DNA of 64,000 nucleotides from Patescibacteria group bacterium (GCA_049323035.1 JBMOLB010000005.1:110402-174401), one strand, 5' to 3'; numbered from the stretch's first letter, positions 3,233 to 53,833 are shown. Made by a program: numbers and translations. Notes: a model not told the origin generated them from the sequence alone.

Positions 3233-5040
3233 TGAAAAAAGACGCCCTCAAATTACTGACAGTTTTCATTGTCACCGTGGCGGGTGTTTTTTGGGCGCTG
3301 AACTATTTGTTTTTGAGCGACAAGACGGCTCAGAAATCAAAGGCAGCCAATGACAGCATTGAAGTCTCTTATGATCCGGCGACCCCGACTGCCGCCGCCG
3401 GGCAGGATTTTACGGTAATGGTGAGAATGAAGCCGCCGACAAATGTCTCGCTTAGGGGATATACCCTGAAACTCAAGTTCGACAAGGCAATCCTGAAAGC
3501 AAAATACATAGACTATAAAATAGGAGTCCCCAGTCCGGACTTTGGTGACACTTCGGGTTCTCTGACCGCGATAAATGAGGCGGGAACTATCAACATCCAG
3601 GGGGAAATACAAAACCCCACAGGTCTTCTTATAAACGCAAACACGACCAATGACATTGTCAGAATAGTCTTTACGGCAACCCAGGCATCCGGAAATACGG
3701 TTGCCCTGAGCAACGTTAACTTTTACAAGGTCAAATCGGACGGAACCATCGAAGTTGATGAGATCGCTTCGCCTCCGGAACTCAAGGTTAACGGAGGGGC
3801 GGCGGCTGCCCAGTGCGAAAATTTCACCGATGGTTTTTCGGCTTCTTCGTTGAATTCCAGCCGATGGGGCATTAATACGAACAATTCCGGGACAGTCCGC
3901 ACTGACAACGATGAACTGACCATAACCACTCCTGAAAGCACCAATAACATGGGAAAAACGACATACATATACAGCAAAAACCTCGTCGGGGGTGATTTTG
4001 CAGTCGAAACTGTTTTCAAAGGATTATCGAGCACCCCTGCGAGCGCTTCCGGTTACGTGTCCGGGTTGGGTTTCTTCGCCCACGATTCGGGCTATGACGG
4101 CTTTGCAATAGAAAGACACGGTAATGGCCAGCTCAAAGTTCTTTATGATTGGAACAATAGCGACTGGGTCAGCCCTGTTCTTGTCAATACCTCTTTGGGT
4201 CAGAACAGCCCGGTCAAGGTCAAGATGGAAAGAACCGGCACAGAAGTTAAATTCTATTATGACATATTCGACGGAGGCGGTTACAGGCTGGCGAAGTCCT
4301 TTACGGGCGCATATGCCGGGAAAGCTAACATCGAGGTATTCGTGAATAACTACGGAACCAGTTATCCGAAAGCGGTCGGGAAATTCGACGATTTCAAGTT
4401 GGCCTGTTCAGGCGGCGGGAGCGTGACTCCAACCGTCCCCGCGGTTAACATAACGCCGACCGGGGCAATTGCAGTGACAGGCAACACGGTCTTGAATCTT
4501 AAACTCAAATTCCAGGGAATAACTGCCAAGCCTGCCGATCCAAGGAATTTCATGAACGTAAAATTCACCCTTTCGGGTGAAGGGATAACAACACCGCTTG
4601 TTAAGTCGGGTTCTTTCGTGAGCGATGCCTCGGGAGTGTGGAGCGGTAAGGTCGGATTTGATCTTACTTCCCCTGCGGGCAAGAAATACACGCTTTACGT
4701 CAAAGGGCCTCGCCACGTCCAAAAGAAGATTTGCGTCAATGCCCCAGCGGAAAACACCCCAGGAACATACAGTTGTAGCGCCCAGGCGATCACCCTTGCA
4801 TTGGGCGAAAACACCCTGGATCTCTCCAAGGTTTTGCAGCTTTCGGGCGACATATACGGCACCGATAAAGGCCAGGACGGGATCGTCAATTCCATAGACA
4901 TATCCTATGTCAAGAATAACCTCAAAAAAGCCGACGCGGCGGTTTTGGGAATTTGCGACATCAATTTGGATGGCAAGTGCGATACTCAGGATTACTCATT
5001 GATCATCTCGTCCCTGTCTATAAAGAGCGACGAACTCTAA
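3229..5040 (+). CDS. surface protein: cohesin-like N-domain, ConA/LamG-like lectin domain, C-terminal dockerin-like pair
   Basis: N-terminal TM anchor. Cohesin-like block (AAAGQDFTVMVRMKPP...IVRIVFTATQASGNTVAL). Central block FTDGFSASSLNSSRWG...VKFYYD resembles a ConA-like lectin/glucanase fold. C-terminus has DKGQDGIVNSIDISYVKNNL and DINLDGKCDTQDYSLIISSL. ATGA overlap with the upstream gene. Confidence 0.7.
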   Translation: MMKKDALKLLTVFIVTVAGVFWALNYLFLSDKTAQKSKAANDSIEVSYDPATPTAAAGQDFTVMVRMKPPTNVSLRGYTLKLKFDKAILKAKYIDYKIGVPSPDFGDTSGSLTAINEAGTINIQGEIQNPTGLLINANTTNDIVRIVFTATQASGNTVALSNVNFYKVKSDGTIEVDEIASPPELKVNGGAAAAQCENFTDGFSASSLNSSRWGINTNNSGTVRTDNDELTITTPESTNNMGKTTYIYSKNLVGGDFAVETVFKGLSSTPASASGYVSGLGFFAHDSGYDGFAIERHGNGQLKVLYDWNNSDWVSPVLVNTSLGQNSPVKVKMERTGTEVKFYYDIFDGGGYRLAKSFTGAYAGKANIEVFVNNYGTSYPKAVGKFDDFKLACSGGGSVTPTVPAVNITPTGAIAVTGNTVLNLKLKFQGITAKPADPRNFMNVKFTLSGEGITTPLVKSGSFVSDASGVWSGKVGFDLTSPAGKKYTLYVKGPRHVQKKICVNAPAENTPGTYSCSAQAITLALGENTLDLSKVLQLSGDIYGTDKGQDGIVNSIDISYVKNNLKKADAAVLGICDINLDGKCDTQDYSLIISSLSIKSDEL

Positions 5041-13004: not shown

Positions 13005-15173
13005 TCAAGTCGTTTTTCGCCCGTATTTTTCCTTGGAAAGGCGGATGATTTTATCCCGGTTTTCGTTTTTCATGGCCGGCGGCGGCAGGGTCTTGGCAGG
13101 GAACGGTGAGGATGTCATACCGTCGATGCACAACTTGAGGACGGCCTCGTATTTACCAAGCGATACCAAGTCGTTTTCGGTATAGATCTCTCCGTATTCT
13201 TTGGATAATACATATGCGTCCCGGGCACCGACGACAAACGACATCAGGGTTCCGACGTTTCCGAAAATCGCCCTTTGTATCTCCTCATCAAGCTGTTCGA
13301 TATACTGGTTGGCCAAGGTAAGGGACAACCGGTATTTCCTGGCTTCAGACAGTATCTTGATGAAGGAATGGGTGGCGAAGTTCTGGAACTCGTCTACATA
13401 CAGGAAAAAATCTTTCCTCTCATGTTCCTTTATGAAGCTCCGGTTCATGGCCGCCAATTGGAGTTGGGTGATAAGCATCGCGCCAAGCAAGGCGGTATTG
13501 TCCTCGCCGAGCTTTCCCTGGGATAGGTTAAGAATTAATATCTTGCCGTCGTTCATGATGTTTTCCAGATCGATTGAAGATTTGGTGCGCCCAATGATGT
13601 TCCTGATCATCTTCGAGGTGACGAACTGACCGACCTTGTTTTGGATGGGGGAAATGGCCTCTGCCTTCAAGCGGTCGGGCATTTTGGCGTATTCCTTTTC
13701 CCAGAAGTCCTTGAGAACCGGATCCTGGAGATCCCGTACAACTTTTTTCCGGTATTCGGCATTTGCCAAAAGAGCCAGGATGTCGACCAAAGTAGCCCCC
13801 GGGGCTTCAAGAAGGGTTAAAATCACGTTGCGCAAAATATATTCCAGTCTCGGCCCCCAGCTGTCCTTATAGAGTTTATAGAATATTGAGACAATTCCGG
13901 AAGCAACCAAATCCTTTTGCTGCCGGTTTTTTATCTCAAGGACGTTCAGGGAAAATGGCCGTTCGGTATCGAAAGGTTCGAGGTAAACAACGTCATTGAG
14001 GCGGCGCTTCGGGATATAGTCGAGGATTGCTTCGGACAAGTCGCCGTGCGGGTCAACGATGCCGACACCGCGGTCTTTCCTGATGTCGTCGATGGCCATA
14101 TTGGCAATCAAGGTCGATTTACCGACGCCGGTTTTACCGATTATATAAACATGCTTGCGTCGGTCTTCCGTCTTGATCCCAAAAATGGTCTCCTTGTTCT
14201 TGAATTCGGTCTTGGCAAAGAAATTGACATCCTTTTTCTGGTCCTCGTTTAGAGTATCGGCAACAGGCAGATTTTCGGGCGGTTCGCCCAACAAAGTTTT
14301 GCCCCAGGCAATGTTTTTGATGCCAGCCAAAAGGTAACCGGGCGGATGCCAGATGGTCGCCAGCTCCTGGGCGTTGAGAATCTGGAATTTCCTTTCGAAA
14401 TAGGAGATCTTCCGTTCCTTGATCCTTTTGAGAAAGCTTTCACCAAAAAATATTTTTTTCTTGAAAACGTACTGGTTGCCTTCGCCAAGGGAAAACGATC
14501 CGAATGTCCCGGCGAGTTGTGTCAGGTATGGCCTGGTGTCTACTGCCTGTTCGTTTGAACCGACCAATAGCCTGATCGCGGCCTTGCCTCCCTGGAACGA
14601 GGCCTTCTTCATAATGAGCTGCCTTTGGGGATTCTGGCCGTATTTGGCGGCAGCCTCATCGTAACTCATCTTGTGGGCGGCGCTCACGGCCTGGTCAGAC
14701 CAGGGGAAGTACGCCGGGGTAATGGCAACCTGGATGGCCATCTTTATGTTGGCCGGTTGTTTTGACATGTAGCCTATGAGGGACGACAGGGGATCGACGT
14801 CCTTGAAGTCGAAATAGGTCTTGGTCGGCAGGTATGTGTAGGAATTGAGTGCGACCTCTCCGTACGACAGGCTTTTGGATTTCATGATCATTTCCATCGG
14901 GTCGGAGGTTTTTTTGGCGGTCGAGGTCGGGAATGAGGAGGAAATAAGGCTGTTCACAAAGGTCTGGGTTTCGGCCGGAACGGTGACATAAAAATACAGA
15001 GTTTGACTCAAGAGATAAATCTCAAAGGCGTAAGTTTTCGGATGGATGAAAAAACGCCTCAATAACGGGATATAGGGATAGGGGAGGAGTGAGGCAAAAA
15101 TCTGTGTCGCCGACTCGATCGGCGTTTCGTCATCTTTAGGATTGCGGATTTGTAAGTGGGAAAGGTTTGACAT
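13005..15173 (-). CDS. VirD4/TraD/TraG-like (type IV secretion coupling protein family) P-loop ATPase
   Basis: Walker A IIGKTGVGKST. Walker B FFLYVDEFQNF. A large unannotated N-terminal domain of about 330 aa. C-terminal TLANQY...GNVGT pattern as in the TraD/FtsK-like DNA-binding ATPases. Confidence 0.7.
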   Translation of the reverse strand: MSNLSHLQIRNPKDDETPIESATQIFASLLPYPYIPLLRRFFIHPKTYAFEIYLLSQTLYFYVTVPAETQTFVNSLISSSFPTSTAKKTSDPMEMIMKSKSLSYGEVALNSYTYLPTKTYFDFKDVDPLSSLIGYMSKQPANIKMAIQVAITPAYFPWSDQAVSAAHKMSYDEAAAKYGQNPQRQLIMKKASFQGGKAAIRLLVGSNEQAVDTRPYLTQLAGTFGSFSLGEGNQYVFKKKIFFGESFLKRIKERKISYFERKFQILNAQELATIWHPPGYLLAGIKNIAWGKTLLGEPPENLPVADTLNEDQKKDVNFFAKTEFKNKETIFGIKTEDRRKHVYIIGKTGVGKSTLIANMAIDDIRKDRGVGIVDPHGDLSEAILDYIPKRRLNDVVYLEPFDTERPFSLNVLEIKNRQQKDLVASGIVSIFYKLYKDSWGPRLEYILRNVILTLLEAPGATLVDILALLANAEYRKKVVRDLQDPVLKDFWEKEYAKMPDRLKAEAISPIQNKVGQFVTSKMIRNIIGRTKSSIDLENIMNDGKILILNLSQGKLGEDNTALLGAMLITQLQLAAMNRSFIKEHERKDFFLYVDEFQNFATHSFIKILSEARKYRLSLTLANQYIEQLDEEIQRAIFGNVGTLMSFVVGARDAYVLSKEYGEIYTENDLVSLGKYEAVLKLCIDGMTSSPFPAKTLPPPAMKNENRDKIIRLSKEKYGRKTT

Positions 15174-15504
15174 CGTTTATGATTACAGTGTAACAGTTCC
15201 AGGCTTAAGTTATCAAGATAATGTATATCTTACTTATACAAATAATGTTTATTTGCATAAGTAAGAAGGTAAAAGATGGAGTAAGGATTTATGGTCGCCG
15301 AAAAGGGCGAAGGGCGCGTGTGCGACCAAGTCCATGGAACAATTCCATTTTTACCTTCAGTCAAGGCCCAGGCAGATGTTGCCAGCTTGAGCCCTGTCGG
15401 GTTTTTCAGGAATCCTCTAATGGGGATAAAGCATCTTGGGTATCGCAACCAAAGCCACGTATTGCTCTGCGCAATCATAGTGTTATCTGCCTACCGATTA
15501 ACGG

Positions 15505-16428
15505 TTAGGGGTAAATTCCATAAGGAGGAGCCGGGAGCATACCATGACCAAAGTTTTCCCAATCGGAAATCGTCAAAAACTTGAATGGCGGCTGGATTAC
15601 ATACAGATCGCATGTTGTGTAGACGACAGTCTCACTGACGTTCATCGTGCCGATGCAACCCCCGTATGGATCAATGGGAAGTTTATTCAAATCAGCCAAG
15701 TTGTCAATCTTGGTTTCCCAGATGATTGTGCCCGCAGGAATGAAACTGTAGGTAACGGTGGTAAAGTTGCCTCCATAGTACTCCCCCCATTTTTGATATG
15801 CTTCGTCGAGCAGCATGACCAGATTATTCTCCGGGGTGAGCGATGCCCATATACTCAGAAGGTCGGCAGACGTGAATGGTGCCGGTATGATATTGGGCGT
15901 GGAGGTCGGATCGACCGCGGCTGGTGTCTGGATGACTATCTGGGTCGGCAGAACTGGGGGCCAATTAGGCCAGCCTGGAAATAAAACGGAAGGATTTGCC
16001 GAAATCTGATTCAACTCTATCTGTTTTCCGCCGATTGCCATGGTGAGGCTCTTCGTTGTCAAGTATGTTGAAGCCAAACCGGTCTGCGCGCCAGCCACTT
16101 GATAGAAATCCTGTCCTTCGATTGCGGGTTGATTGCCATTGATTACAAATGGATTCGTTCCTTTGATGGGATCATTTACCAATATCAAGGCGTTGGCAGG
16201 TACGGTATAGCCCGCATCAAAAGAAGTTGCTTCGGCGAAGGAAGTGAGTTTTGTATGAAAACACAGATGGGTAAACACTCCGGTGTTATTGACACATTCT
16301 TCCCATACTTTGGTGACTTTGCTTTCGATGGTCATCGTGGTGACGGAGGGAGCGTTTGAGGGCATATTGCACGCCGCCAATATAAAGACCAGCATTAAAC
16401 TGATCGCTTGCCAAATTCTCTTGCTCAT
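15505..16428 (-). CDS. lipoprotein, function unknown
   Basis: Lipobox LAAC after a hydrophobic signal. AGGAGA SD upstream. GC is higher than in neighbouring DNA. Confidence 0.6.
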   Translation of the reverse strand: MSKRIWQAISLMLVFILAACNMPSNAPSVTTMTIESKVTKVWEECVNNTGVFTHLCFHTKLTSFAEATSFDAGYTVPANALILVNDPIKGTNPFVINGNQPAIEGQDFYQVAGAQTGLASTYLTTKSLTMAIGGKQIELNQISANPSVLFPGWPNWPPVLPTQIVIQTPAAVDPTSTPNIIPAPFTSADLLSIWASLTPENNLVMLLDEAYQKWGEYYGGNFTTVTYSFIPAGTIIWETKIDNLADLNKLPIDPYGGCIGTMNVSETVVYTTCDLYVIQPPFKFLTISDWENFGHGMLPAPPYGIYP

Positions 16429-16600
16429 TCGATTTCTCCTGTATCTTTGATTTATCGTGTTGATTCGGATTCGTTTCTCCGTAAGGGAGTTTTCGCATTG
16501 CGAAAGGCCATAAGATCTTTTTGATCAGCTGCCTTAATTTTTTCGTGAGGTTTATTCCTCTATTAAGTTGTATGGCATCACCTCCTTTCAAGACAGATTT

Positions 16601-16825
16601 TTAGAACGAGCCGTACTTTTCGACCAGAGAATAAATAATATCCGGACCGAAAATCACACCTAGCACGCAAAGCACCACGACGACAAGGACAACAATCGTC
16701 CATTTTCCGTCTCCGGGAGCCATGATATAGCTTCCGCATTTGGTGCAATGCATTCCACGCACTTGCCACGGCTGTCCGCAATGTGGACAATGAACCGTGC
16801 CTTCCGGTTGATTACTTTTCGACAT
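16601..16825 (-). CDS. small zinc-ribbon protein with C-terminal TM helix
   Basis: The start is moved to the internal ATG, which is preceded by GAGGAG. CPHCG...CTKCG zinc ribbon, then TIVVLVVVVLCVLGVIF. The listed 130-aa extension runs through the conserved RNA motif. Confidence 0.5.
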   Translation of the reverse strand: MSKSNQPEGTVHCPHCGQPWQVRGMHCTKCGSYIMAPGDGKWTIVVLVVVVLCVLGVIFGPDIIYSLVEKYGSF

Positions 16826-16947
16826 TTCATTTCTCCTCTTCACAGGTTTTTGACTTACTTGAACATTTTCTTTAGAACCAGTACGAATATGATCGTTATC
16901 AAAATCTTTACTACTAACATTTTCTTTTCTCTCCTTTCCAACAGAAT

Positions 16948-17071
16948 GACTTGCTCCCTGGAGCCAAATTATTAGCTTCAAAGTGCAAGCCATTCTTTCC
17001 CTAATGGGTTAAATCTTTTGGATCCTGAAACAGTCCAGGGTAACAAGATATAACCGTTCGGAAAGAAAGGA
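16948..17071 (-). ncRNA. conserved structured leader/RNA motif, copy 1
   Basis: About 124 nt, roughly four-fifths identical to 25159-25281. Two helices are kept by G-U/compensatory changes on the minus strand. It lies upstream of a small-TM-protein/lipoprotein cassette. Confidence 0.4.
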
Positions 17072-17368
17072 TAAAGGAAATTAACCTGAAAACCCGTTTT
17101 TTTAAAGTGCGACGGCTAAATATGGTCGCTCATGCTAAATAAGCGACTTATCCGCCACAATTCTTCTCCCGAATGGAATTCTTGCAACAGCTATTATTGC
17201 CGTCGTTCCGTTTCGGTTTCCCTTTTTGGGGGAATTGAGAACGTGGGGCTTTAACCCCAAGAAGCGAAGAACTAGATTTGCGCTGATTCTTCAGTTCCTG
17301 GAATTAATCCTATAAAAATAAAAAAACTCGGGCGGAAATAGTCAAAAATTGGCTTTTCTGTGCTCGAG

Positions 17369-17398
17369 TTGACAAATGCCTAGATCAGATCATATATG
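17369..17398 (+). promoter_or_regulatory. candidate sigma70-like promoter for the giant GT-C gene
   Basis: TTGACA (17369-17374), then an 18-nt spacer and TATATG. Confidence 0.3.
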
Positions 17399-17478
17399 TC
17401 TTATAGTATACAGTATACAGCCTCAAAATTCAATCGGAAAGGGCAATTTTCCACGCAGTTGTTATAATCAACTTAACG

Positions 17479-20400
17479 ATGGGCAAAATAGTTGACTATC
17501 TCAAAAAAAGACCTGGTTTAATCGTGATTTTAATGATTCTAGTAGTCATAACTGCCGTTAACATAAAACCAGACTTCTATCTTGCCGGATGGGATAATTA
17601 TTCTTCCTACTTCAACCTTAAAACCAATATTTTCAGGACATTTTTTGCCACCTGGAGGGAGTATCGAGGCCTAGGGGTTCCATCGGACTCAGAATCTACC
17701 GATATTTTTAGGCAGATATTTTTCCTGATCCTGTCTCCATTCGTAAAAACCCAACTGCTGGATCAGATTTATGCTGTTTTTGCATTGAATTTTGGAGTGT
17801 TGCTGGTATATTTTCTGCCGGGTAAGCTGCTCGGATATATTAAAAAAGATAGTGAGCATAAAGACATTGTTGGTTTCGCGGCAGGTTTTTTTTATCTCTT
17901 CAATCTCAATACTTTGGCGACATTCTATTTCCCGATGATCATGTTCATCAATCGCTATTATACGGTTCCTCTCTTGGTCACCTTGCTGTTGAGGTATTTT
18001 GAAAATAAGAAACTATCGTCTTGGGAATATTTTCTGTTTGGAGCTTCAATTGTGGCTACAGCAGGCAGTTACATGACAGCAACAGTATTCATAACCGTTT
18101 TAATGTTCTTATCAGTCTTTATATTTTTCCAAAGCCCCAATATTAAAAAATCCCTGATTTCGATGACGATGTTTCTGTTACTCAACGGTTTTTGGCTGTT
18201 TCCATTTATTAATTACACGATCCAAAGAAGCGGGGTAGTAAATTTGGCACCAACTTTCATTGAAGCGAACGAAATACAGCTAAACAAACCGAAGTCCTTT
18301 TATACCCTGGAAAAACTAGCGATTTTATATCCAAATTTTTTTGACACCGCAATCACAAGTATCGACAGACAAAACGAGACTGGATACCATCCGCTTGTGC
18401 CTATAATGTCAAAATTCCCATACCGTCATATTCTCTGGCTATTTCCCCTGTTATATATTGCCGGATCAATCTATATAACAGTCAGGATAAGGAGAAACTG
18501 GAGAATTATGTGGATTCCAGCTACTGTTTTCCTTTTCATGTTCTTGTCAATGAAAGAATTTTCCCCTTTGGGTTTTGTATACATTTTTCTTGAAAAGGCG
18601 ATCCCTTTTTTCGGGAACATATTCAGATTTGCTGACACAAAATTTCATTTTTATATAGCATTTTCCGGTAGCCTTGCAATTGGATTGTTTACAGGATTAC
18701 TGGCGGAAAAAATCAAAAGCAAGAGTTTGCGGATTTTTCCCTTAATCTTGATCATATTGTCGGCGTTCGTTTTCAAAGGCTATTTCACCGGGAATCTTTT
18801 TGGATTTTTTGACCGGAACAGAATTCCCGATGCTTATTTTAAATTGGCTGAAGTCGTCAACTCCGACCATGGGGATGGTCGCGTTCTTCATTTACCTTTT
18901 GATAAGAATATATATTGGCGGTCATACAACTGGGGATATTTAGGGTCATCGTTTTTACATTTTATGATCGACAAGCCATTAATTGAAAAAACATTTGAGC
19001 CAGGAAGTCAGGAAAATGCTTTGTTAAACGACGAAATCTTCCGGATTATTGCCAATACCCAGTCGGCGACGGCCAATCACAGCCAGGAGAGCAAGACTTT
19101 TGAGTTCTATAACCTCTTAAAAAAGACGGGCATAAAATATATAATTTTCGATGAAACTGTTTCATCCGAACAACCATCAAAGGGAATAACGCTTTGGGGT
19201 AGGTTCAATGTTTCCGATTCCAATAAGATGATAGGCAATCTCGAAAACGCCGGCTATTTGAATCTAAGAGCTTCATTTCCGGTTAACCTTACCGAATTTA
19301 TGACCGACGAAAAAGTCTTTCCTGAAGACCCGTTACAGATTAGCGAAGTAGAAAAAAGCCCCTTATATTCAATAAAGTTGTACGAAGTCAAGGAACCAGA
19401 CGCAAAGATAAGAACGGCAGGAAAGACCGTTGTTTCTGATTCCAACATGTCCAGCCTTAGTATACAAGAGGGCTTTGATTACATGCAGGACGACTCTGGC
19501 GTAAACGTAATGACATCGCCATTCAAAAGACGGAACACTTTGCCGAAAATCGAAAAGGGATTTGGTCGGTTAGTTCTTGACGGTTACAAAATTATTCCCG
19601 GACTTGGATATGATTTGACATTACAAAACAAAGCCGGACAACCATCCCAAACCCAAATAGGAGTATTTGTCAGAAAAGACGAAGATAACCTGACGATTTC
19701 ATTTTATCAAATGGATTTTCCTGACGTCGTCGTGGATGGCTCGATCATCAGCAATCGTAAAAAAATAAAGGAGATATCCATACCGTTAGGCACGGTATCA
19801 ACAGCCTTGGAGATTAACGATAGTACTGGCAGATATCTTGCTAACTGGCAAATATTGCCCTATGACAGAATAAATGGCTTAAGAATCAAGATGGGTAAAA
19901 CGACAATGCCTTTGCCCAGCTCCATTGGTGAAACGGAAGGCTATGTCGGATCCACGGTGGTTGATGAAGGAGTAATGCCGATAAAGATATTGGCTCAGGA
20001 CACAGAAACGAAAGATGTTGTTAATTCGTTTGGCCTGACCGAAAAACCTAATTGTTTTGATGACGGCCTGAAGGATTATGCGTCAAGCCTTTCGGCACAG
20101 GAAACCGGTTTTTCATTGGACAGCATGAACGGATCAACATGTCTTATTAGTTCGCTTGGCGAATATGTCGACGAGGATAATAACTATCTCGAAGTTGGTT
20201 TTGAGTATAACAGCAGTTCGGAAGACCTTGATGGCGATTACGATCTGAAGTATGCCAACCCGAGCAAGCCGATTTTGAGAAAGACGATTGTTACCGAGGA
20301 AAAACCCAATTATTTTTACGCCTGCATCAGAGATGTCAAGTTGGATGACTGCTTCAATGTTCATTCAACCGCAAATCTTGGAGATAGCGGATCGGTTATA

Positions 20401-21507
20401 ATTCCTGCGGAAAAGGAAATAAACGCCCTAAATCCCATAATCTTCCTGGCTTTGAAAAACATCGGTTACCAAAAGCAGAATCTAATTATCCATGGTTTAG
20501 AGATAAAGGAGTACAAAACGGTCGCCTCTGATGATTTGACAATTGTCCCCGCAAAGACAGAAAACATGAGTATTATTTCCAACACATCGCAGCCTTTGGA
20601 ATTAATTTTTGATTTGCCATTGAGCGGTTATTCTTTTTACCAGAATTCAATGGACGGTTTTAACGTATCCAACGGTCCATGTTCTAGAATCGATTCATAC
20701 CGGACATTCAGAAAAGATAAAAAAGAAAACCTGATAAGTTATTTCGAAAACTGCGATAATAGCCTGTTTCAAACCCTGGATTTCAACAGCAATAACTTTT
20801 ACCTTTGGTCGGTTGATTATAACTCCGCCTCCGGAAAGTATCCCAGAATGGTTCTGGGTGATGGGCTTTTTAACTATGTTGACCAGTATTTATCACTCTG
20901 GCATGGTTACCCAAATGTCAAAGGATTTAAGGAATTTCAATATCCAGAGTTTTTCCAATCAACGAACTCGGTGAAGGAAAAGCTTGACAATGTCGAGTTG
21001 GTGAATACTTCGATTACCATACCATCCAACCCGGAATTCTACGATTACAAAAAAAAGAATTTCACTATCAGTCACAATTCAGAAAACGAAGGGATGGCCT
21101 TAATCAACCGTTTCAATGTCATAGCGATTCCCAATACTTGGGAGGGCTTGACAATAAATTCGCCAGGAAACATAACGGTCAACGAGTTTGCGTCGGTAAC
21201 AGAATACAAACAGTTTCTTCCATCGCTATGGAAATTGATTCTAAACAATGATGATTTTGGAAATCAGGTGGTATATTTCAACGAGGCATACGACAGCCAA
21301 TGGGGGATCTATTCCAGCATTTTTGACCTAATGACAGGCAAGGAATCATCGATGTCACATTATAAATGCAACGGTTATGCCAACTGTTTTGAAGTGTCGC
21401 AACCAGGGACGTATTATGTTTTCTATCAGCCGGAAAGACTATATTTCTTTGGCTGGCTGGTCACCTTGGCGGCAATCTTTTTAGGGAAGATAATCGTTTC
21501 TATCTGA
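17479..21507 (+). CDS. giant polytopic membrane protein, GT-C-type glycosyltransferase, AftD-like architecture
   Basis: 1342 aa. About 450 aa of N-terminal multi-TM region, a very large soluble (extracytoplasmic) region, and one C-terminal TM helix (WLVTLAAIFLGKIIVSI). This matches arabinofuranosyltransferase AftD/DUF3367-type proteins. Low-GC DNA. Confidence 0.55.
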   Translation: MGKIVDYLKKRPGLIVILMILVVITAVNIKPDFYLAGWDNYSSYFNLKTNIFRTFFATWREYRGLGVPSDSESTDIFRQIFFLILSPFVKTQLLDQIYAVFALNFGVLLVYFLPGKLLGYIKKDSEHKDIVGFAAGFFYLFNLNTLATFYFPMIMFINRYYTVPLLVTLLLRYFENKKLSSWEYFLFGASIVATAGSYMTATVFITVLMFLSVFIFFQSPNIKKSLISMTMFLLLNGFWLFPFINYTIQRSGVVNLAPTFIEANEIQLNKPKSFYTLEKLAILYPNFFDTAITSIDRQNETGYHPLVPIMSKFPYRHILWLFPLLYIAGSIYITVRIRRNWRIMWIPATVFLFMFLSMKEFSPLGFVYIFLEKAIPFFGNIFRFADTKFHFYIAFSGSLAIGLFTGLLAEKIKSKSLRIFPLILIILSAFVFKGYFTGNLFGFFDRNRIPDAYFKLAEVVNSDHGDGRVLHLPFDKNIYWRSYNWGYLGSSFLHFMIDKPLIEKTFEPGSQENALLNDEIFRIIANTQSATANHSQESKTFEFYNLLKKTGIKYIIFDETVSSEQPSKGITLWGRFNVSDSNKMIGNLENAGYLNLRASFPVNLTEFMTDEKVFPEDPLQISEVEKSPLYSIKLYEVKEPDAKIRTAGKTVVSDSNMSSLSIQEGFDYMQDDSGVNVMTSPFKRRNTLPKIEKGFGRLVLDGYKIIPGLGYDLTLQNKAGQPSQTQIGVFVRKDEDNLTISFYQMDFPDVVVDGSIISNRKKIKEISIPLGTVSTALEINDSTGRYLANWQILPYDRINGLRIKMGKTTMPLPSSIGETEGYVGSTVVDEGVMPIKILAQDTETKDVVNSFGLTEKPNCFDDGLKDYASSLSAQETGFSLDSMNGSTCLISSLGEYVDEDNNYLEVGFEYNSSSEDLDGDYDLKYANPSKPILRKTIVTEEKPNYFYACIRDVKLDDCFNVHSTANLGDSGSVIIPAEKEINALNPIIFLALKNIGYQKQNLIIHGLEIKEYKTVASDDLTIVPAKTENMSIISNTSQPLELIFDLPLSGYSFYQNSMDGFNVSNGPCSRIDSYRTFRKDKKENLISYFENCDNSLFQTLDFNSNNFYLWSVDYNSASGKYPRMVLGDGLFNYVDQYLSLWHGYPNVKGFKEFQYPEFFQSTNSVKEKLDNVELVNTSITIPSNPEFYDYKKKNFTISHNSENEGMALINRFNVIAIPNTWEGLTINSPGNITVNEFASVTEYKQFLPSLWKLILNNDDFGNQVVYFNEAYDSQWGIYSSIFDLMTGKESSMSHYKCNGYANCFEVSQPGTYYVFYQPERLYFFGWLVTLAAIFLGKIIVSI

Positions 21508-22334
21508 CTCTTCCGGTAAACCATTTTTTTCATGATTCTGTAAAGGGCGAAATTAACTTTGGGCGGAAGGTGTATCGCCAAAAAATATTGTACCTTCCAG
21601 AATGTCTTAACAAAGATTCCAGGTTTTTGGATATTGGCGGCGGCCCATAGATGGACATTATTGGTGCTCTCAATCATCTTGCGGTGAAGCCTCATGGTCG
21701 CGGCAGAATCATGCACCCTGAATTTGGTGACGACGTGGTTGAGATTGGCAAGCTTGCCCAGCTGACCCATCCTGAACCACAGGTGATAGTCATCTGCAGG
21801 GTAGAACGCTTGATCATAGTTGCCGGCTTTCTTGAAGGTGCTTTTTCTATACATGACCGCCGGATCAGCAAACGCATTAAGGTATAGCCAGTTATTTCTG
21901 ATTTCCTGATCGGTTTGGGGATAAGAGAGTGTATCTATAGTTCTTCCTCTTCCGTCAATGAGTTTAAGGTTTCCTCCAACTAAAACATGACCTTGATTAT
22001 TTTCCAGGAAATAAACCTGGGACTTCAACCTGGTGGGGACCATGAGATCGTCCTGGTTCTGTCTGGCGATGTATTTTCCCTTGGCTTTGGTAACGGCAAA
22101 GTTCAAGACGTTACATAATCCTCGGTTTTTTTTGAATGAATAGAATTTAATATTCTTATGTTTCTTTTTGAGTTTTAAACATAATTCCTTACTCCTGTCT
22201 TTGGAACCATCGTTGACGAGGATGATTTCAAAATTGGCGTAAGTGCTCTTGTAAACAGACGAAATGGTTTCCCTAAGGTACGGGTAGCCGTTATATACCG
22301 GTATTATGACCGAAACTAAAGGTTGCTTTTTCAT
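21426..22334 (-). CDS. family 2 glycosyltransferase
   Basis: VSVIIPVYNGYPYL, NDGSKD and QDD motifs. The 3' end overlaps the convergent GT-C gene by 82 bp. Confidence 0.85.
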   Translation of the reverse strand: MKKQPLVSVIIPVYNGYPYLRETISSVYKSTYANFEIILVNDGSKDRSKELCLKLKKKHKNIKFYSFKKNRGLCNVLNFAVTKAKGKYIARQNQDDLMVPTRLKSQVYFLENNQGHVLVGGNLKLIDGRGRTIDTLSYPQTDQEIRNNWLYLNAFADPAVMYRKSTFKKAGNYDQAFYPADDYHLWFRMGQLGKLANLNHVVTKFRVHDSAATMRLHRKMIESTNNVHLWAAANIQKPGIFVKTFWKVQYFLAIHLPPKVNFALYRIMKKMVYRKSQIETIIFPKKIAAKVTSQPKKYSLSG

Positions 22335-23095
22335 ATAAAGGGTATGGGAAATTTTAGTTTAACCACTTCTATTCTAATAGAATTTAAAATCCGATGTCCA
22401 AGCAAAGCCAGGATATCAAAGATGGCCTCGATTATGCGTTTTTTTGATGGAAACCTGGATGGCCGGATCTCTTTTACGTTTACAGGTGTTTCGTTGACAA
22501 TCAGTTTGTTGATTTCGGCGGCGATGACAATTGACGTGTCGAACATATGTTTGGTCATGGGTAGGTCTTTTATTAGTTCCATGACAGAATCCCTTTTGTA
22601 AGCCTTTATGCCGTGGGTGTCAGTCCCGTAATATCCAAAAAGTATATTGATCACTTTTTTCAAGGCCTGACTCAAAAATTTTCTGTAGATTGAGCGGTCA
22701 TCCTTGCGCCCTAAAAATTTTGACCCAATAAGGATGTCGTATTGACCATATTCTTCCATGGCTTTTCTTATAAATCTTCCATCTATCAAGTCAAGATCCA
22801 ACTGGATAATCGGGTCATTTTTGGCAGAAAGGAGGCCTCTTTTAATGGCATGTCCATAATGGGGCAGGGAAGCCTTAATTACGGTTATCCGACTGTCTTT
22901 TTGGGTCAAACCGTACGCCAATCTGAAAGTCTGGTCTTTACTTCCGTTTTCTATCAGAACCACTTCATAATTTTTGACTCCCATATTTTTGAGAATCCGT
23001 CTCAATTTGTTGACCTGGGGCACGATAATAGACTCCTCATTGTGGAGGGGGATGATTATCGAGACGGGATTATTATGAAAATTAATTTTTTTCAT
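22331..23095 (-). CDS. family 2 glycosyltransferase (polyprenol-phosphate sugar transferase-like)
   Basis: VSIIIPLHNEE, IENGSKDQT and LDLDL motifs. ATGA-type coupling to the downstream GT2 gene. Confidence 0.8.
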   Translation of the reverse strand: MKKINFHNNPVSIIIPLHNEESIIVPQVNKLRRILKNMGVKNYEVVLIENGSKDQTFRLAYGLTQKDSRITVIKASLPHYGHAIKRGLLSAKNDPIIQLDLDLIDGRFIRKAMEEYGQYDILIGSKFLGRKDDRSIYRKFLSQALKKVINILFGYYGTDTHGIKAYKRDSVMELIKDLPMTKHMFDTSIVIAAEINKLIVNETPVNVKEIRPSRFPSKKRIIEAIFDILALLGHRILNSIRIEVVKLKFPIPFI

Positions 23096-23319
23096 ATTTT
23101 TTCAATTTTCTAAATTCCTTTTCCTCTAACCACATAATGGTTATGGGAAAAGGCATGAGAGGGAGTAATAGGATTTTGTTGATCGCGGGGGCGATAGAGC
23201 GCAAAAAATTGCGATCAACAATTACCGTTATCCACAGTCATGGCCTTTTTTTGGAGGACCCAATTAACTTTCCGTTTAAGGCGAAGTTAGTGTTCAAGGG
23301 GTCCTCCTTGGGTTACAGG

Positions 23320-24201
23320 TTAGTGCAAATACGAGGCGGGCAGAGCGGCTTCAAGATGAATCGCGCGTCCGGGCGTGGGGATTGTGCAAGTACTTCCACT
23401 TGGACAATAGTAGACACCGAAAATCCAGGTGGTGTCATAGTTCCACGTCTTGACGACGACAGCATTGGTGAGCGCTTGATGCCCGGGGTCCGTGAGGACG
23501 ATGCTCGGTCCATTGGTGGTCCAGCCGCCGACACTCGATTGAGTGTTCGTGATGCATTGATTTTCGGCTTGCTTTCCGAACAGAATGGTCAGCGTGTCAG
23601 CATATTGGTCTGCCGAGGTTGCATCAACGAGATTTGTTGCTTCCTGCACGGTCATAGCGCGGGTTGTCGGGCACGATAAGCCTGTGACGGTATTGGAACC
23701 GGCGGGCGTTGCGGCGACGGGCGCGGATGCGGTCGTGTGCAGGTATGAGGCGGGCAGGTCTGCGTCGAGGGCGAACGAGCGTCCAGGGGTGGGCACGTTG
23801 CAGGTCGAGCCGGTCGGGCAGAAATACACGCCGAAAATCCAGTCCTGGCGGTATTGATAGGTCTTGACCACGACGGCATTGCTGATTGCCTGATTCTGGG
23901 GGTCCACTGAAATGAGGGCGGGTCCGGTCACGTTCCAGTTGCCAACGCTCGAGGGGTTGTTGATGATGCCATTGTTATCGGCAAAATCACCCAGGGCGAC
24001 GGTCAGACTGTCTGCGTATTGGTCGGATGCCTTCGAGTCAATGATGCTCGTTGCTTCAGCGACGGTCATCGGGCGGGTGGTTTGGGCGGGCGACTGCGCG
24101 GGGGGAGCGGCATGGACATTCCATGGTCCCATCATCGTTCCGGCAAAAAAAGCCAGTACGAGTAACGCGCTTGTGATTGCGAGTGGATATGCTCTACGCA
24201 T
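23320..24201 (-). CDS. secreted protein made of two tandem ~115-aa repeats (GC-rich island)
   Basis: The start is set at MRRAYPL, which has a signal peptide and a GAAAGGAAAAG SD. The repeat RPMTVAEATS...PTPGRSFALDADLPASYLH recurs as RAMTVQEATN...PTPGRAIHLEAALPASYLH. Confidence 0.7.
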   Translation of the reverse strand: MRRAYPLAITSALLVLAFFAGTMMGPWNVHAAPPAQSPAQTTRPMTVAEATSIIDSKASDQYADSLTVALGDFADNNGIINNPSSVGNWNVTGPALISVDPQNQAISNAVVVKTYQYRQDWIFGVYFCPTGSTCNVPTPGRSFALDADLPASYLHTTASAPVAATPAGSNTVTGLSCPTTRAMTVQEATNLVDATSADQYADTLTILFGKQAENQCITNTQSSVGGWTTNGPSIVLTDPGHQALTNAVVVKTWNYDTTWIFGVYYCPSGSTCTIPTPGRAIHLEAALPASYLH

Positions 24202-24414
24202 GGTAACACTTTTCCTTTCTGAAAAGTCTTGCTCTGGCTCATTTCTGAGTTGGTTAATCGGATTCGGCTTGGTTATTCCGCACGGTGTTTCTGTGCTTTT
24301 CCGTTCAAAAGATTGGCATTCTCTTTTGGCTATTTTGACCAATTCTTATCTACTTGCGATATAAGCGTCAACCATAGCTGGTTATGCGGCATCACCTCCT
24401 TTCGTTAGATGATT

Positions 24415-24744
24415 CTAGTTGCCAATCAGGTCGTTGAGCGTTTCATCAGAGATGAATACGCCTTTGGTTGTTTCACAACTCCCGTAATTGCTAACCGAAA
24501 CCTCGCTTATGTCGAAGCGTATTGATCCTTGCGAACCCAATGAACTTTCCCAGTATGTATTCCTGGTTATGGTTACCTCTTGTGAAGGTAGTTCACAGGT
24601 TGTCAAACCAGACCGGTCGTACTTGACCTGGTATGCTTTGGTTTCGTCGGGGATTGTGATTCTCGTACCTTCCGCTGGTGGTGCGCATCCGGCCAATGCC
24701 AGAAAAAGAGCGCCCAAAAGCACTGCTACTAGAAGCCTTTTCAT
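24415..24744 (-). CDS. small lipoprotein
   Basis: Lipobox LAGC after MKRLLVAVLLGALFLA. Confidence 0.6.
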   Translation of the reverse strand: MKRLLVAVLLGALFLALAGCAPPAEGTRITIPDETKAYQVKYDRSGLTTCELPSQEVTITRNTYWESSLGSQGSIRFDISEVSVSNYGSCETTKGVFISDETLNDLIGN

Positions 24745-24838
24745 CGTACTATCCCTCGCTTTCGTCTACATATAGACACTTACTTTTTTCATTTTTCCTG
24801 ACTTTTTTGCCTGTTTACCTCCTTCCAAAGGTGAAAAA

Positions 24839-25045
24839 TTACTTATACATATCCTTCTTGCGTTTTCTTTCCCTCTCCAAACGGTCGGCTATTTTATCGC
24901 TTTTGCGACTCTCAATCAGCATCGGTATGCCGAAAACAATGAAGAGTCCTAATGCGATTGCCGCTAGGATGATGAGTGCATCTGTCTGTGTCAGACAGCC
25001 GTGCATTGGGATGTTTACGTCGATTACGCATGCAGTTGTTTCCAT
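24839..25045 (-). CDS. small single-pass membrane protein with basic C-tail
   Basis: 68 aa with the TM segment ALIILAAIALGLFIVFGIPML and a Lys/Arg/Glu-rich tail. First ORF after RNA motif copy 2. Confidence 0.45.
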   Translation of the reverse strand: METTACVIDVNIPMHGCLTQTDALIILAAIALGLFIVFGIPMLIESRKSDKIADRLERERKRKKDMYK

Positions 25046-25158
25046 TTTCGTTTCCTTTTCTTCGATGAATTTTTTTTGATTGCTTGTCTGAGTCGTTGTT
25101 CCCTTGCTGCTTTGTTATTTTTTCTTCTTTCCTTTGTTTTTCCCTTCTTTTGTTGATT

Positions 25159-25281
25159 GACTTGCTCTTTGAAGCTAATGGTCTAGCTCCAAGGTGCAAG
25201 CCAATCTTTCCCTAATAGGTTGAATCTATGATCCTGAAACGAGTTCAGGATGACAAGATAAAACCGTTCGGAAAGAAAGGA
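25159..25281 (-). ncRNA. conserved structured leader/RNA motif, copy 2
   Basis: Paralog of 16948-17071. The perfect hairpin ATCCTGAA-N5-TTCAGGAT corresponds to CCTGGA/TTCAGG (with one G-U pair) in copy 1. Confidence 0.4.
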
Positions 25282-25699
25282 GTTTAGAGGTATATGTCAG
25301 GTTAATTCGTGTTCAATTGAGCCATTATGTTTGCCCAAATTTGCCCATAAAAAATATATAACCTGTATCTGTCTTTCGACAGAAATACCCGTTGGTATAG
25401 TTCAGCTCCCAAGGAGCTAATCCTTGAGTCATTCGTATACTTTCGGGTAAACCCAATTGTTAAAGTGCGAGGAAGTGCCCGCACATTCAAGCTTTTGAAC
25501 GTGTAGCCTTCCACACTTCGTCTCCGCACATGTTCAGCGGGGACTAGACTGATATGTCCCGCCCTTCGGCGGGAAGCTAGTCCCCGCCTGGGACGAAACA
25601 GTGCTTGAGCCTAAGCCCAAGGAGTAGAGGACAAATGTGCCCTCTAACCTTTGAGTTCAGGCTAGCCTCAATCTCAAATTGTTAAAGATACTTTTCCAC

Positions 25700-25753
25700 A
25701 AAAAAACCCAAGAGCGAAAAAGCGGCGATTGATCCGCTCTTTCCCCCTTGGGT
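25700..25753 (-). terminator. rho-independent terminator after the 25969-26637 gene
   Basis: The minus strand reads AAGAGCG-loop-CGCTCTT. The loop contains a GCGG/CCGC hairpin. The stem is followed by GGGTTTTTTT. Confidence 0.5.
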
Positions 25754-25968
25754 ATTTAAGTCAGTACTCTCGTATTGGTATATGTTTCGTCCCTTAAACA
25801 TATGCCTATAGTATATCACAAATATAGCTAAAAATCAACTATAGTTGTGATTATAGTAATCTAATTGTAGTTATCAACAATCCATCAACATTATCCTCTT
25901 TTGTATATATATCGGTTATCAAAGAACCTTCAGTCTCGCCGAGGCAAAATAACGTACGCAGCCTCGAA

Positions 25969-26637
25969 TCAAGACTTTTTCTTAAGATATATGCCGGCTC
26001 CAAGTAAGGCCAGTTGACCGGTCAATAGGGCAAGGCCGAATTCAGGTCCGGCAGAAGGTACCTTTATGACGCCCCCCGTGACCTGCTTTTCGATACAAAG
26101 CTGGGCGGTGTCGTCGTCGTAAGCGTTGGATGAGTTGGCTTTCACAAAGTTGGTGACACAGAAAAGACCCTTGTCGGCCGGGATATTGGCCTGGGAATAT
26201 ACCCTCATCTTGAGGTAAAAAGTCTTTTCCTCGTCGACGTTGAAATCTCCGGCATTCCAGACGATTTCACGGGTGGCCGAATTCCAAGATCCGGGTCCGT
26301 CCAAAGGTTCAAGATAAGAGGGGACCGTGTCCCTGACCTCCATTCCGACCAATCTGGTGGTTGAGGTATTCTTGACTTTTATCTTAAAATAGACAACCTG
26401 TTCAGGTTTGAATCTGGCGTCAGATACACCCAAGTTATCTACATATGTGTATGAATTGGCATCCTGCGAAGTTCCCGGCTTTCCGACCATTTTATCAACA
26501 ACTATAGAATAGGAATTGCACGGCTGTCCGTATTGGCCATACTGACCGTATTGTCCGCCGCAGTCTGCGGAGACCTTGTTTGTTAGAGAAAGAAATCCCG
26601 CGAAAACAACCAATAAAGCAAATATTAGTTTTTTCAT
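25969..26637 (-). CDS. secreted DUF11-like surface protein with C-terminal sorting-signal-like tail
   Basis: The start is moved to MKKLIF (signal peptide). QYGQYGQYG low-complexity stretch. DUF11-like VRDTVPSYLEP pattern. The C-terminus has VPSAG, a hydrophobic helix, then KKKS. Confidence 0.6.
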   Translation of the reverse strand: MKKLIFALLVVFAGFLSLTNKVSADCGGQYGQYGQYGQPCNSYSIVVDKMVGKPGTSQDANSYTYVDNLGVSDARFKPEQVVYFKIKVKNTSTTRLVGMEVRDTVPSYLEPLDGPGSWNSATREIVWNAGDFNVDEEKTFYLKMRVYSQANIPADKGLFCVTNFVKANSSNAYDDDTAQLCIEKQVTGGVIKVPSAGPEFGLALLTGQLALLGAGIYLKKKS

Positions 26638-31548: not shown

Positions 31549-31584
31549 CAGTGGAGCTAATTATAATCGAACGGCAGTGAGATT

Positions 31585-31645
31585 AAAAGACTAAAGTATT
31601 ACCTTTAATATTCGGGCGAAAAATAACTCGCCCGAATGTCTTATA
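31585..31645 (+). repeat. conserved ~60-nt hairpin motif, copy 1
   Basis: AAAAGACT...ATATTCGGGC-N12-GCCCGAATGTCTTATA. A second copy lies at 53773-53833. This copy ends 19 nt before the ATG at 31665. Confidence 0.55.
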
Positions 31646-53753: not shown

Positions 53754-53772
53754 TATCATTGTCGTTAAGACA

Positions 53773-53833
53773 AAAAGACTATTATAATACCTTAAATATT
53801 CGGGCAAAGCATAGCTTGCCCGAATGTCTTATA
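53773..53833 (+). repeat. conserved ~60-nt hairpin motif, copy 2
   Basis: AAAAGACT...ATATTCGGGC-N12-GCCCGAATGTCTTATA. Lies between the carB stop and the flavoprotein gene, ending 16 nt before the ATG at 53850. Confidence 0.55.

Follow-up and report, generated by a model that had tools for sequence, protein, structure and literature searches.

Two copies of a motif in the window

The sequence analysed is a stretch of 64,000 nt (hereafter the window) from a Patescibacteria group bacterium (GCA_049323035.1, JBMOLB010000005.1:110402-174401), and the element in question is a motif of about 124 nt that occurs in it twice, on the minus strand, each time at the head of a cassette of small genes. The motif makes up the 3'-terminal domain of a long 5' leader, which starts at a conserved sigma-70-type promoter and stands ahead of an envelope-related operon. 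This operon comprises small membrane peptides and lipoproteins, followed by glycosyltransferases, a very large membrane protein and a VirD4-like ATPase. The two copies and their parts are given below, where SD stands for Shine-Dalgarno and P0 to P3 for the helices.

16948-17071, minus: core motif of copy 1; P1 is formed by 17060-17066 with 16994-17000, P2 carries an apical hairpin, and P3 lies at 16948-16991
17060-17071, minus: 5' pyrimidine tract UCCUUUCUUUCC of copy 1, a mimic of the anti-SD sequence
16994-17001, minus: pseudo-SD GGGAAAGA of copy 1
16929-16939, minus: SD tract GGAAAGGAGAG of copy 1, predicted to form the 3' strand of P0; the ATG at 16920 follows after 8 nt, or after 12 nt when counted from the GGAG core
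25159-25281, minus: core motif of copy 2; P1 is formed by 25270-25276 with 25205-25211, followed by the P2 hairpin, and P3 lies at 25159-25202
25270-25281, minus: 5' pyrimidine tract UCCUUUCUUUCC of copy 2, that is CUCCUUUCUUUCC with the preceding C, 5' strand of P0 and P1
25205-25212, minus: pseudo-SD GGGAAAGA of copy 2
25118-25150, minus: purine-rich SD-like tract AAAGAAGGGAAAAACAAAGGAAAGAAGAAAAAA of copy 2, predicted 3' strand of P0, with no start codon at SD distance

When the two segments were aligned end to end on the minus strand, 103 positions were identical over 124 and 123 nt (83%), in agreement with the initial annotation, which had put the likeness at about four-fifths along the full length. 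The edges of the block are abrupt, as similarity ceased at both ends once the flanks were included in the alignment. A repeat search returned this pair as the longest direct repeat of the window, and the 11-mer CCTTTCTTTCC was found at both motif sites and nowhere else in the 64 kb. Two covariance models, R1 built from the two window copies and R2 from 18 sequences, gave exactly two sense-strand matches in the window (E about 1e-29 and about 1e-17). The R2 matches on the opposite strand were partial and fell on P3, which is close to a palindrome. The assembly is borne out by an independent Logan contig (SRR32167788), which has the identical sequence across 13685-26428, both copies included.

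Conserved fold and RNA strand

Both copies fold into the three helices drawn in the initial annotation, namely P1 (UCUUUCC/GGAAAGA), a nested P2 with an apical CCUGRA/UUCAGG hairpin, and the long 3' hairpin P3, with z-scores of -4.9 to -7.3. All three were recovered by RNAfold and RNAalifold, and they covary in 20 homologues. Between the two copies the pair-preserving changes are all one-sided, with no double compensatory change. As had been noticed, a G-U pair keeps the central hairpin in copy 1 (a G-U for A-U change at columns 37/45), and three one-sided changes between the copies preserve pairing in the 3' hairpin. In model-guided alignments the paired cells amounted to 95-96%, versus 27-55% when the 3' partner was slid by 1-3 columns, and 18-20 pairs were changed on both sides; none of 500 shuffles matched the observed measures. 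Since such alignments are fitted to the structure, the test was repeated on a structure-blind MAFFT alignment with de novo RNAalifold, which again gave P1, P2 and P3, here with 13 compensatory pairs.

The folding energy was about equal for both strands and does not discriminate between them, and the strand was therefore decided from conserved G·U pairs and model scores. G·U cells numbered 80 of 624, and four pairs were G·U in most sequences; the antisense would turn these into A·C mismatches, which fixes the RNA strand as the gene-sense strand. Stop codons occur in nearly all frames of both strands, and two variable segments differ by lengths that are not multiples of three. Covariation, G·U pairs and stop codons together bear out the earlier view that conservation is at the level of a non-coding RNA on the minus strand. 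A coding or leader-peptide reading was rejected: the 130-aa open reading frame (ORF) that the gene caller placed at 16601-16993, starting inside P3, is not conserved, its AUG being UUG in most relatives and the ORF lengths ranging from 10 codons upward. A promoter-like match in P2 of copy 2 (25228-25256) is absent from copy 1 and from relatives and was discarded as an internal promoter.

The invariant nucleotides of the junction are GAAA, AAGUA and UU, together with the base of P3, and the fold covaries around these invariant junction and loop nucleotides as in riboswitch classes. P3 is a stem of 17-20 bp with a conserved base. It does not resemble an intrinsic terminator, as AUUCU/AAUCA follows it with no U run, and the terminator scan was silent there. 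Insertions of 30, 115 and 476 nt in relatives lie exactly within hairpin loops. The 115-nt insertion is in the P3 loop of L010. In L012 a single motif has the 30-nt mini-hairpin GTCATTGCGAGCGTAAGCGAAGCAATCTCA twice, once in the P2 loop and once in the P3 loop (4495-4525 and 4573-4603), which suggests a small mobile repeat with a preference for loops. The 476-nt insertion, in the apical P3 loop of L038 (3190-3670), contains a gene for a 120-aa protein of Pfam family PF05635 (23S rRNA intervening-sequence protein, Avd-like). Intervening sequences of 23S rRNA reside in rRNA helices and are excised by RNase III. The L038 case resembles them in that the gene lies in the apical loop of a long conserved helix; it differs in that the host helix belongs to an mRNA leader and not to rRNA, and it was seen in one lineage only.

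Homologues and distribution

Our first scans of the genome collection and of metagenomes required CCGAACGG, a pattern that was too strict, since relatives carry CCGAAAG. With this pattern no match was obtained in the metagenomes, and five were obtained in the genome collection (L002-L006), which were set aside as chance matches, being devoid of the 3' hairpin and not found by R1. R1 found the element in the syntenic gap of L007/8/9, L012 and L010. The metagenome scan with the corrected pattern gave 14 loci, each confirmed by R1, and R2 additionally detected the divergent L039, L036, L038 and L033. Members of the family by R1 or R2 are thus L007/8/9, L010, L012, L014-L027, L030, L033, L036, L038 and L039, and the proposal to look for further homologues with a covariance model from the two copies has been rewarded with about 20 more loci in Candidatus Roizmanbacteria. 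There is one copy per locus in all relatives; another match in L030 (5774-5872, E = 0.015) lies inside a gene and was taken as chance.

Viral contigs scanned for GGGAAAGANTGGCTTGCAC gave no match, nor did phage and plasmid collections searched by blastn with leader plus motif. The VirD4 proteins of lineages carrying the element are 75-92% identical, and the many VirD4-like relatives in this range are annotated as Candidatus Roizmanbacteria, Microgenomates or Patescibacteria. As far as sampled, the distribution is confined to Candidatus Roizmanbacteria, members of the candidate phyla radiation (CPR). Among the 4227 models of Rfam 15, only tRNAs passed the gathering thresholds in the window and six related loci, and neither copy of the motif matched a family; the initial annotation had likewise been unable to assign the motif to a familiar riboswitch or sRNA family. 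Permissive Rfam scans of both copies and of the L012 leader gave sub-threshold chance matches only, the best being mir-665 with 24.8 bits against a threshold of 52. The element is not described in the literature that was searched. We conclude that it is a previously uncatalogued structured RNA, a new family of a known kind, the SD-sequestering cis-regulatory leader.

Extended leader and promoter

The motif forms the final domain of a conserved non-coding leader of 360-560 nt, at the head of which stands a strong conserved promoter, aCTATAGTTGAc-N17-TATACTATAGG, 360-560 nt upstream of the motif. A nhmmer search with the 620 nt upstream of copy 2 matched the corresponding region in 20 loci, and the promoter sequence of copy 2 recurs in L007, L012, L033, L038 and L039. 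The stretch from promoter to motif may by itself constitute a large leader RNA of several domains. The parts of the leader are the following.

25810-25838, minus: promoter of copy 2, TTGATT-17-TATACT with TG, found by promoter scan; part of the conserved promoter
25850-25877: second promoter-like site of copy 2
25282-25806, minus: non-coding leader upstream of copy 2, with no Rfam match
25784-25793, minus: GGGACGAAAC, loop of a 5' hairpin
25700-25752, minus: terminator-like CCCAAG...CUCUUGGGUUUUUUU
25590-25599, minus: GUUUCGUCCC
25537-25587, minus: nested GC-rich stem
25460-25469, minus: CGCACUUUAA block
25359-25365 and 25298-25304, minus: CAGGUUA with UAACCUG, enclosing AUGGGCA-type repeats
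17405-17433, minus: promoter of copy 1, TTGAAT-17-TATACT then ATAAGACATATATG, homologous to the promoter of copy 2 and about 330 nt upstream of the motif
17072-17398, minus: condensed leader of copy 1
17320-17332, minus: CCCGAGUUUUUUU in the leader of copy 1
17255-17261, minus: CUUGGGG hairpin in the leader of copy 1
17102-17111, minus: CGCACUUUAA block in the leader of copy 1
17082-17088, minus: CAGGUUA in the leader of copy 1
L007 2238-2688, L012 4061-4464, L033 3737-4142, L038 2644-3084 and L039 3549-3909: conserved leader stretches of relatives

Taken together, the leader parts include a terminator-like hairpin with a U run near +60 to +110, a GC-rich nested stem, the CGCACUUUAACAAAAUGGGU block, a hairpin followed by CAGGUUA, and (U)AACCUGA. 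The third of these is the further short block that had been seen upstream of both copies; it is real in the window (CGCACTTTAA at 17102-17111 and 25460-25469) and is kept as a leader block in relatives. A full-leader MAFFT alignment with RNAalifold yielded 21 pairs only, and because the alignment is poor across indels we claim no structure for the leader as a whole.

Several further observations concern the leader. The promoter is near-identical across lineages (25807-25845 and 17402-17433 in the window, both minus; L007 2190-2240), and a CTATAG beside the -35 box, found again across the -10 box, may be an operator. About 60-110 nt behind the predicted start of transcription stands the terminator-like hairpin, ACCCAAG...CUUGGGUUUUUUU, with similar hairpins in L007, L018, L030, L036 and L039 and a weaker one at 17320-17332 (minus); it may serve as an attenuator or mark where a short RNA ends. 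Its 5' arm contains AUACCCA, the complement of the UGGGUAU within the conserved CGCACUUUAACAAAAUGGGUAU block. The same arm holds a third GGGAAAGA (25738-25745, minus), a possible further partner for the anti-SD tract, where several relatives have AAGGAG. About 190 nt downstream of the loop GGGACGAAAC lies its exact complement, GUUUCGUCCC; of 14 leaders, eight had both segments, six had neither and none had one alone, and this joint presence and absence suggests a long-range helix. Inside the CAGGUUA/(U)AACCUG helix there are 2-5 copies of an A(U/C)GGG(C/U)A repeat at a spacing of about 8-11 nt (25332-25392, minus), which may bind a protein. The 3' arm of this helix has another possible partner in L033, L017 and L014, downstream of the SD, and pairing there would extend P0.

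Shine-Dalgarno tract and predicted closing helix

A purine tract, typically (A)AGAAAGGAG(G), is found 3-26 nt 3' of P3 in every homologue, and it is exactly GAAAGGAGG in L007, L010, L012, L015, L023, L038 and L039. The motif thereby stands immediately ahead of the cassette's first ribosome-binding site. The 5' tract of the motif, (C)CUCCUUUCUUUCC, is invariant in 18 of the 21 lineages and is complementary to the downstream SD tract as well as to the internal GGGAAAGA. The 3' tail of bacterial 16S rRNA ends in …CCUCCUUUCU, and we take the 5' tract to be essentially a copy of it. A start codon follows the purine tract at 5-12 nt in 11 of 21 lineages, usually opening an 18-52-aa hydrophobic peptide or a zinc-ribbon membrane protein; seven lineages, copy 2 among them, have none, and the remaining three are ambiguous.

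With 45 nt of downstream sequence added, the minimum-free-energy fold paired the 5' tract with the SD tract in 16 of 16 close homologues. It takes the form of a three-way junction, in which P0 is predicted to join UCCUUUCU of the 5' tract to AGAAAGGAGG of the SD tract, the last four bases of the 5' tract form a short P1 with GGGA, and P2 and P3 extend from the junction. The divergent sequences of L036, L033 and L039 give an equivalent predicted architecture from other closing strands, with z-scores of -6.2 to -8.8 (the closing pairs are, in this order, CACUUCCU/AGGAGGUG; CUCCUUUUU/AAAAAGGAG plus UGAUU/AAUCA; and UACUUCCUUUCUUU/AAAGAAAGGAGGUG), and L033 has neither P1 nor pseudo-SD. The energy of the interaction between tract and SD was 7-15 kcal/mol with a mean of 11, and -9.7 kcal/mol for copy 1. 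As both strands of the P0 core are tied to the ribosome sequence, the core cannot covary, and its flanks were tested instead: duplexes of cognate 5' and SD flanks reached -13.7 kcal/mol versus -12.1 kcal/mol for swapped ones (permutation p = 5.5e-4). When the downstream region was held single-stranded, the motif refolded to the full P1 with GGGAAAGA, so the two predicted states share one strand. The SD of copy 1 had a predicted unpaired probability of 0.14 versus a median of 0.49 for 30 other genes of the window, and was less accessible than 27 of these 30. The SD tract is thus predicted, with modest comparative support, to be locked in the closing helix of a three-way junction.

Genomic context and downstream cassettes

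Gene order was compared in the loci of nine VirD4-like relatives. The conserved order starts with a SpoU methylase and a DUF11/CLIPPER surface protein, then a gene-free gap of 0.6-1.4 kb, and continues with small ORFs and a membrane protein or lipoprotein of about 200 aa, one or more GT2 glycosyltransferases, a membrane protein of 925-1340 aa and the VirD4-like ATPase. In relatives the element is always at one syntenic site, between the DUF11/CLIPPER gene and the variable cassette. The neighbours in the window (SpoU, YchF, peptide deformylase, GT2) match those of the relatives, and no recombinase, integrase or transposase was found near the element in the window or in the relatives' gene tables, the context being core chromosomal. 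In many relatives all genes down to VirD4 lie on one strand, so the leader may head a long operon.

15505-16428, minus: 307-aa lipoprotein, last gene of cassette 1
16601-16825, minus: 74-aa zinc-ribbon membrane protein, family F4, also in L012 and L023
16855-16920, minus: ORF of a 21-aa hydrophobic peptide MLVVKILITIIFVLVLKKMFK, family F7, homologous to the first ORF of L007
13005-15173, minus: VirD4/TrwB-like coupling ATPase of 722 aa, downstream of cassette 1, a Roizmanbacteria core gene and the synteny anchor
24839-25045, minus: 68-aa membrane protein, first ORF after copy 2
24415-24744, minus: 109-aa lipoprotein, family F5, cassette 2
23320-24342, minus: 340-aa secreted repeat protein, cassette 2
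22331-23095 and 21426-22334, minus: two GT2 genes that follow

Copy 2 holds the canonical position in the gap. Copy 1 and its cassette are placed between the gene of the big membrane protein and VirD4, which in L007, L010 and L036 (the membrane-protein gene being inverted in these as well) are separated by only 10-46 nt and enclose no element; for this reason copy 1 is taken as an extra, lineage-specific copy with a shortened leader. We infer that it is a duplicate, peculiar to this lineage, that now stands ahead of the VirD4-like gene. In relatives the gene of the big membrane protein is colinear with VirD4 or abuts it (15174-17478 in the window compared with L007 9990-10001). In the window lineage it is inverted, and VirD4 now comes after another set of promoter, leader, motif and cassette; through this duplication VirD4 may have come back under the control of the leader.

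That the motif heads cassettes of small membrane proteins and lipoproteins, and that the proteins behind the two copies are unrelated, had been stated at the outset and held on closer analysis. The cassettes are mosaics of a few families, and their composition differs between strains. The families comprise small membrane peptides (F3, F7), the zinc-ribbon membrane protein (F4), a further small membrane protein (F6), F5 of about 110 aa with a lipoprotein signal, and F2, which occurs in 12 loci and consists of membrane proteins or lipoproteins of about 130-235 aa (mostly 180-235). About half of the lineages have an 18-52-aa hydrophobic peptide as their first ORF, e.g., MLVVKILITIIFVLVLKKMFK and MLIVKIVLTIAFVLAMREMFGPEEKKETNDK; in copy 2, L014, L019 and L038 a lipoprotein or larger protein comes first. 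No shared metabolic or transport theme that would point to a ligand was found among the downstream genes, which encode variable small membrane peptides, lipoproteins and secreted proteins, then GT2. The region of the secreted repeat protein has a GC content of 0.59 at 23500-23999 versus about 0.40-0.45 in its surroundings, which suggests recent acquisition.

Elsewhere in the window there is a second repeat family of 66 nt (31580-31645 and 53768-53833, plus strand; 82% identity), one copy of which adjoins tRNA-His. It holds a hairpin ATTCGGGCG...CGCCCGAAT, then GTCTTATA.

Discussion

The explanation towards which we lean, with somewhat better than even confidence, is that the motif is the SD-locking 3'-terminal domain of its leader and serves as a cis-acting lock on translation or stability of the first cistron of the envelope-related operon. 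In the closed state (C)CUCCUUUCUUUCC would pair with the extended SD AGAAAGGAGG, and helix P0 would hide the ribosome-binding site of the first cistron. In the open state the internal GGGAAAGA would pair with the same tract, in the form of P1 that was drawn initially, and leave the SD free. Such a lock would gate initiation of translation of the first cistron and possibly of the whole operon, and hence probably mRNA stability. The equilibrium or the kinetics between the two states would be set by an input, for which there are three candidates: a protein or ligand bound at the invariant junction and the base of P3 and holding the open form; endonucleolytic cleavage of the long P3 stem, which would sever the anti-SD tract from the SD; or the order of folding during transcription. 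With regard to the last, the pseudo-SD is transcribed before the real SD and may hold the anti-SD tract during transcription, giving a short open period.

Several points weigh against the lock. In the seven lineages where no start codon follows the tract, the latter is not simply a ribosome-binding site. P1 and the P0 core are invariant and show almost no covariation, an invariance that is partly due to the exact-pattern search by which L014-L027 were found. Given the early terminator-like hairpin, the motif is perhaps reached only by read-through. The downstream genes offer no clue to the signal, and transcript ends, the P0 helix and any switching are predictions.

A small-molecule riboswitch, with the three-way junction as aptamer and a ligand that stabilises P1 and the pseudo-SD so as to free the SD, or the reverse, would agree with stems that covary around invariant junction nucleotides, with one strand having two mutually exclusive predicted partners and the SD as output, and with a length of about 105-125 nt, typical of aptamers. 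Like translational riboswitch platforms and other SD-sequestering leaders, the element has a pyrimidine strand in cis that is predicted to pair with the SD and a predicted alternative partner for that strand. Unlike them it has no Rfam homology and no common gene theme, its anti-SD reproduces the 16S 3' tail almost exactly, and the competing partner resembles an SD too. The hypervariable genes behind it, the restriction to one CPR lineage with one locus per genome, and the complete lack of P1 and pseudo-SD in L033 all speak against a metabolite sensor, and SD/anti-SD mimicry alone explains much of the invariant sequence; we regard a riboswitch as quite unlikely. The mRNAs of the type I toxins hok, tisB and aapA1 are inhibited by fold-back, and here too a long structured 5' region hides the SD of a tiny hydrophobic peptide in about half of the lineages, by an upstream anti-SD (predicted), and the order of folding may matter. 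A translational lock of a toxin-like peptide with an undiscovered antisense RNA is nevertheless very improbable in our judgement, as the motif persists where a lipoprotein or larger protein comes first and the peptide is absent in many lineages, and as the site is a single fixed one in the core chromosome, within an operon that also holds genes for lipoproteins and glycosyltransferases. Neither an antisense promoter nor an antisense RNA was seen, though antisense RNA was not specifically searched for. A module that stabilises and processes the mRNA is unlikely as a replacement for the lock. By this account the 5' structure and the GAAAGGAGG tract would shield the operon mRNA from 5' exonucleases, with P3 as a processing stem of the RNase III type. 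The model for such a tract is the STAB-SD of B. thuringiensis cryIIIA, reportedly described by Agaisse and Lereclus in 1996. The element shares with it, and with the comparable logic of the B. subtilis hbs 5' untranslated region (UTR) (PMC5737220), a GAAAGGAGG tract in the 5' UTR, sometimes retained with no start codon, beside a stable stem and ahead of a long mRNA. To this may be added that P3, for all its conserved base, tolerates loop insertions, even the 476 nt with the PF05635 gene. A STAB-SD works by binding the 30S subunit and must be accessible to it, whereas the tract of the element is predicted to be paired with the internal 16S mimic in all homologues, by about 11 kcal/mol. Such stabilisation would account for the lineages with no start codon and may coexist with the lock.

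Pairing of an SD by an anti-SD-like motif of the same mRNA is also found in S. aureus icaR, where UCCCC in the 3' UTR pairs with the SD in the 5' UTR, blocks the ribosome and makes a double-stranded RNase target (PMC3868564). There the contact is between 3' and 5' UTR, while the element has both partners in the 5' leader, in a three-way junction. RNA thermometers of the ROSE and fourU types likewise pair the SD within a 5' UTR structure; the element does not match their consensus, and its pairing of 7-15 kcal/mol within a fold of about -50 kcal/mol differs from their weak, mismatch-rich, meltable helices. That there is no RNA function at all, the repeat being a recent untranslated duplicate, a site of recombination or cassette exchange in the DNA, or a mobile repeat, could be supposed from the two sharp-bordered copies ahead of unrelated cassettes that differ between strains. 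This has already been largely refuted by the covariation, and we consider it barely credible. The motif is conserved among lineages whose VirD4 proteins are as divergent as given above, with compensatory changes and conserved G·U pairs and a single copy per locus in relatives, so it is not merely a recently duplicated untranslated segment. Neither integrase nor transposase lies nearby in its core chromosomal context, and phages and plasmids gave no match. An integron attC or cassette site was rejected on like grounds, namely no recombinase in the neighbourhood, strong sequence conservation, G·U pairs that indicate RNA, and a position on the 5' side of the cassette only. Lastly, the motif could be a domain of a large stand-alone non-coding RNA that acts in trans and lies beside the cassette by position only. 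The whole upstream region of 360-560 nt is indeed conserved and non-coding, with long-range complementarities (GGGACGAAAC/GUUUCGUCCC and AUACCCA/UGGGUAU). Yet the motif is always 3-26 nt from an SD-like tract, usually with a start codon on the same strand too, and no terminator follows P3, and we give this reading very little credence.

Beyond the lock itself, we put forward tentatively, and with considerable doubt, that Roizmanbacteria have a cis-regulatory RNA of a new class, restricted to them, large (about 500-700 nt) and made up of several domains, with the motif as its output domain. It would then be a genuine sensing device, dependent on a ligand, a protein or processing, and not a static structure. 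Such an RNA would combine a promoter-proximal attenuator, long-range helices, an A(U/C)GGG(C/U)A array that perhaps binds a protein, and the terminal three-way junction, where the 16S-tail mimic and the decoy SD would gate translation and so control the envelope and VirD4-like operon in ultra-small bacteria. Compared with the initial annotation, the analysis adds the SD tract as a predicted part of the fold, the 5' strand as an anti-SD mimic with two predicted alternative partners, the place of the motif as 3' domain of a longer leader, and the standing of copy 1 as a lineage-specific extra copy; the observation itself is confirmed and its interpretation as a structured RNA is supported.

The genomes of CPR bacteria, or Patescibacteria, are tiny and encode few regulators that can be recognised, and hardly any regulatory RNA has been characterised in them. 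The element provides a concrete entry point, open to experiment, to gene control in organisms that so far do not grow in pure culture, and it heads a conserved locus of surface, glycosylation and VirD4-like genes. As it marks the 5' border of a strain-variable cassette, it is useful for annotation and for comparison of strains. A mimic of the 16S tail with a real and a decoy SD as partners would be an economical and exceptionally plain way of concealing a ribosome-binding site, and if the leader of 360-560 nt folds as one unit, it would be an addition to the short list of large structured bacterial non-coding RNAs.

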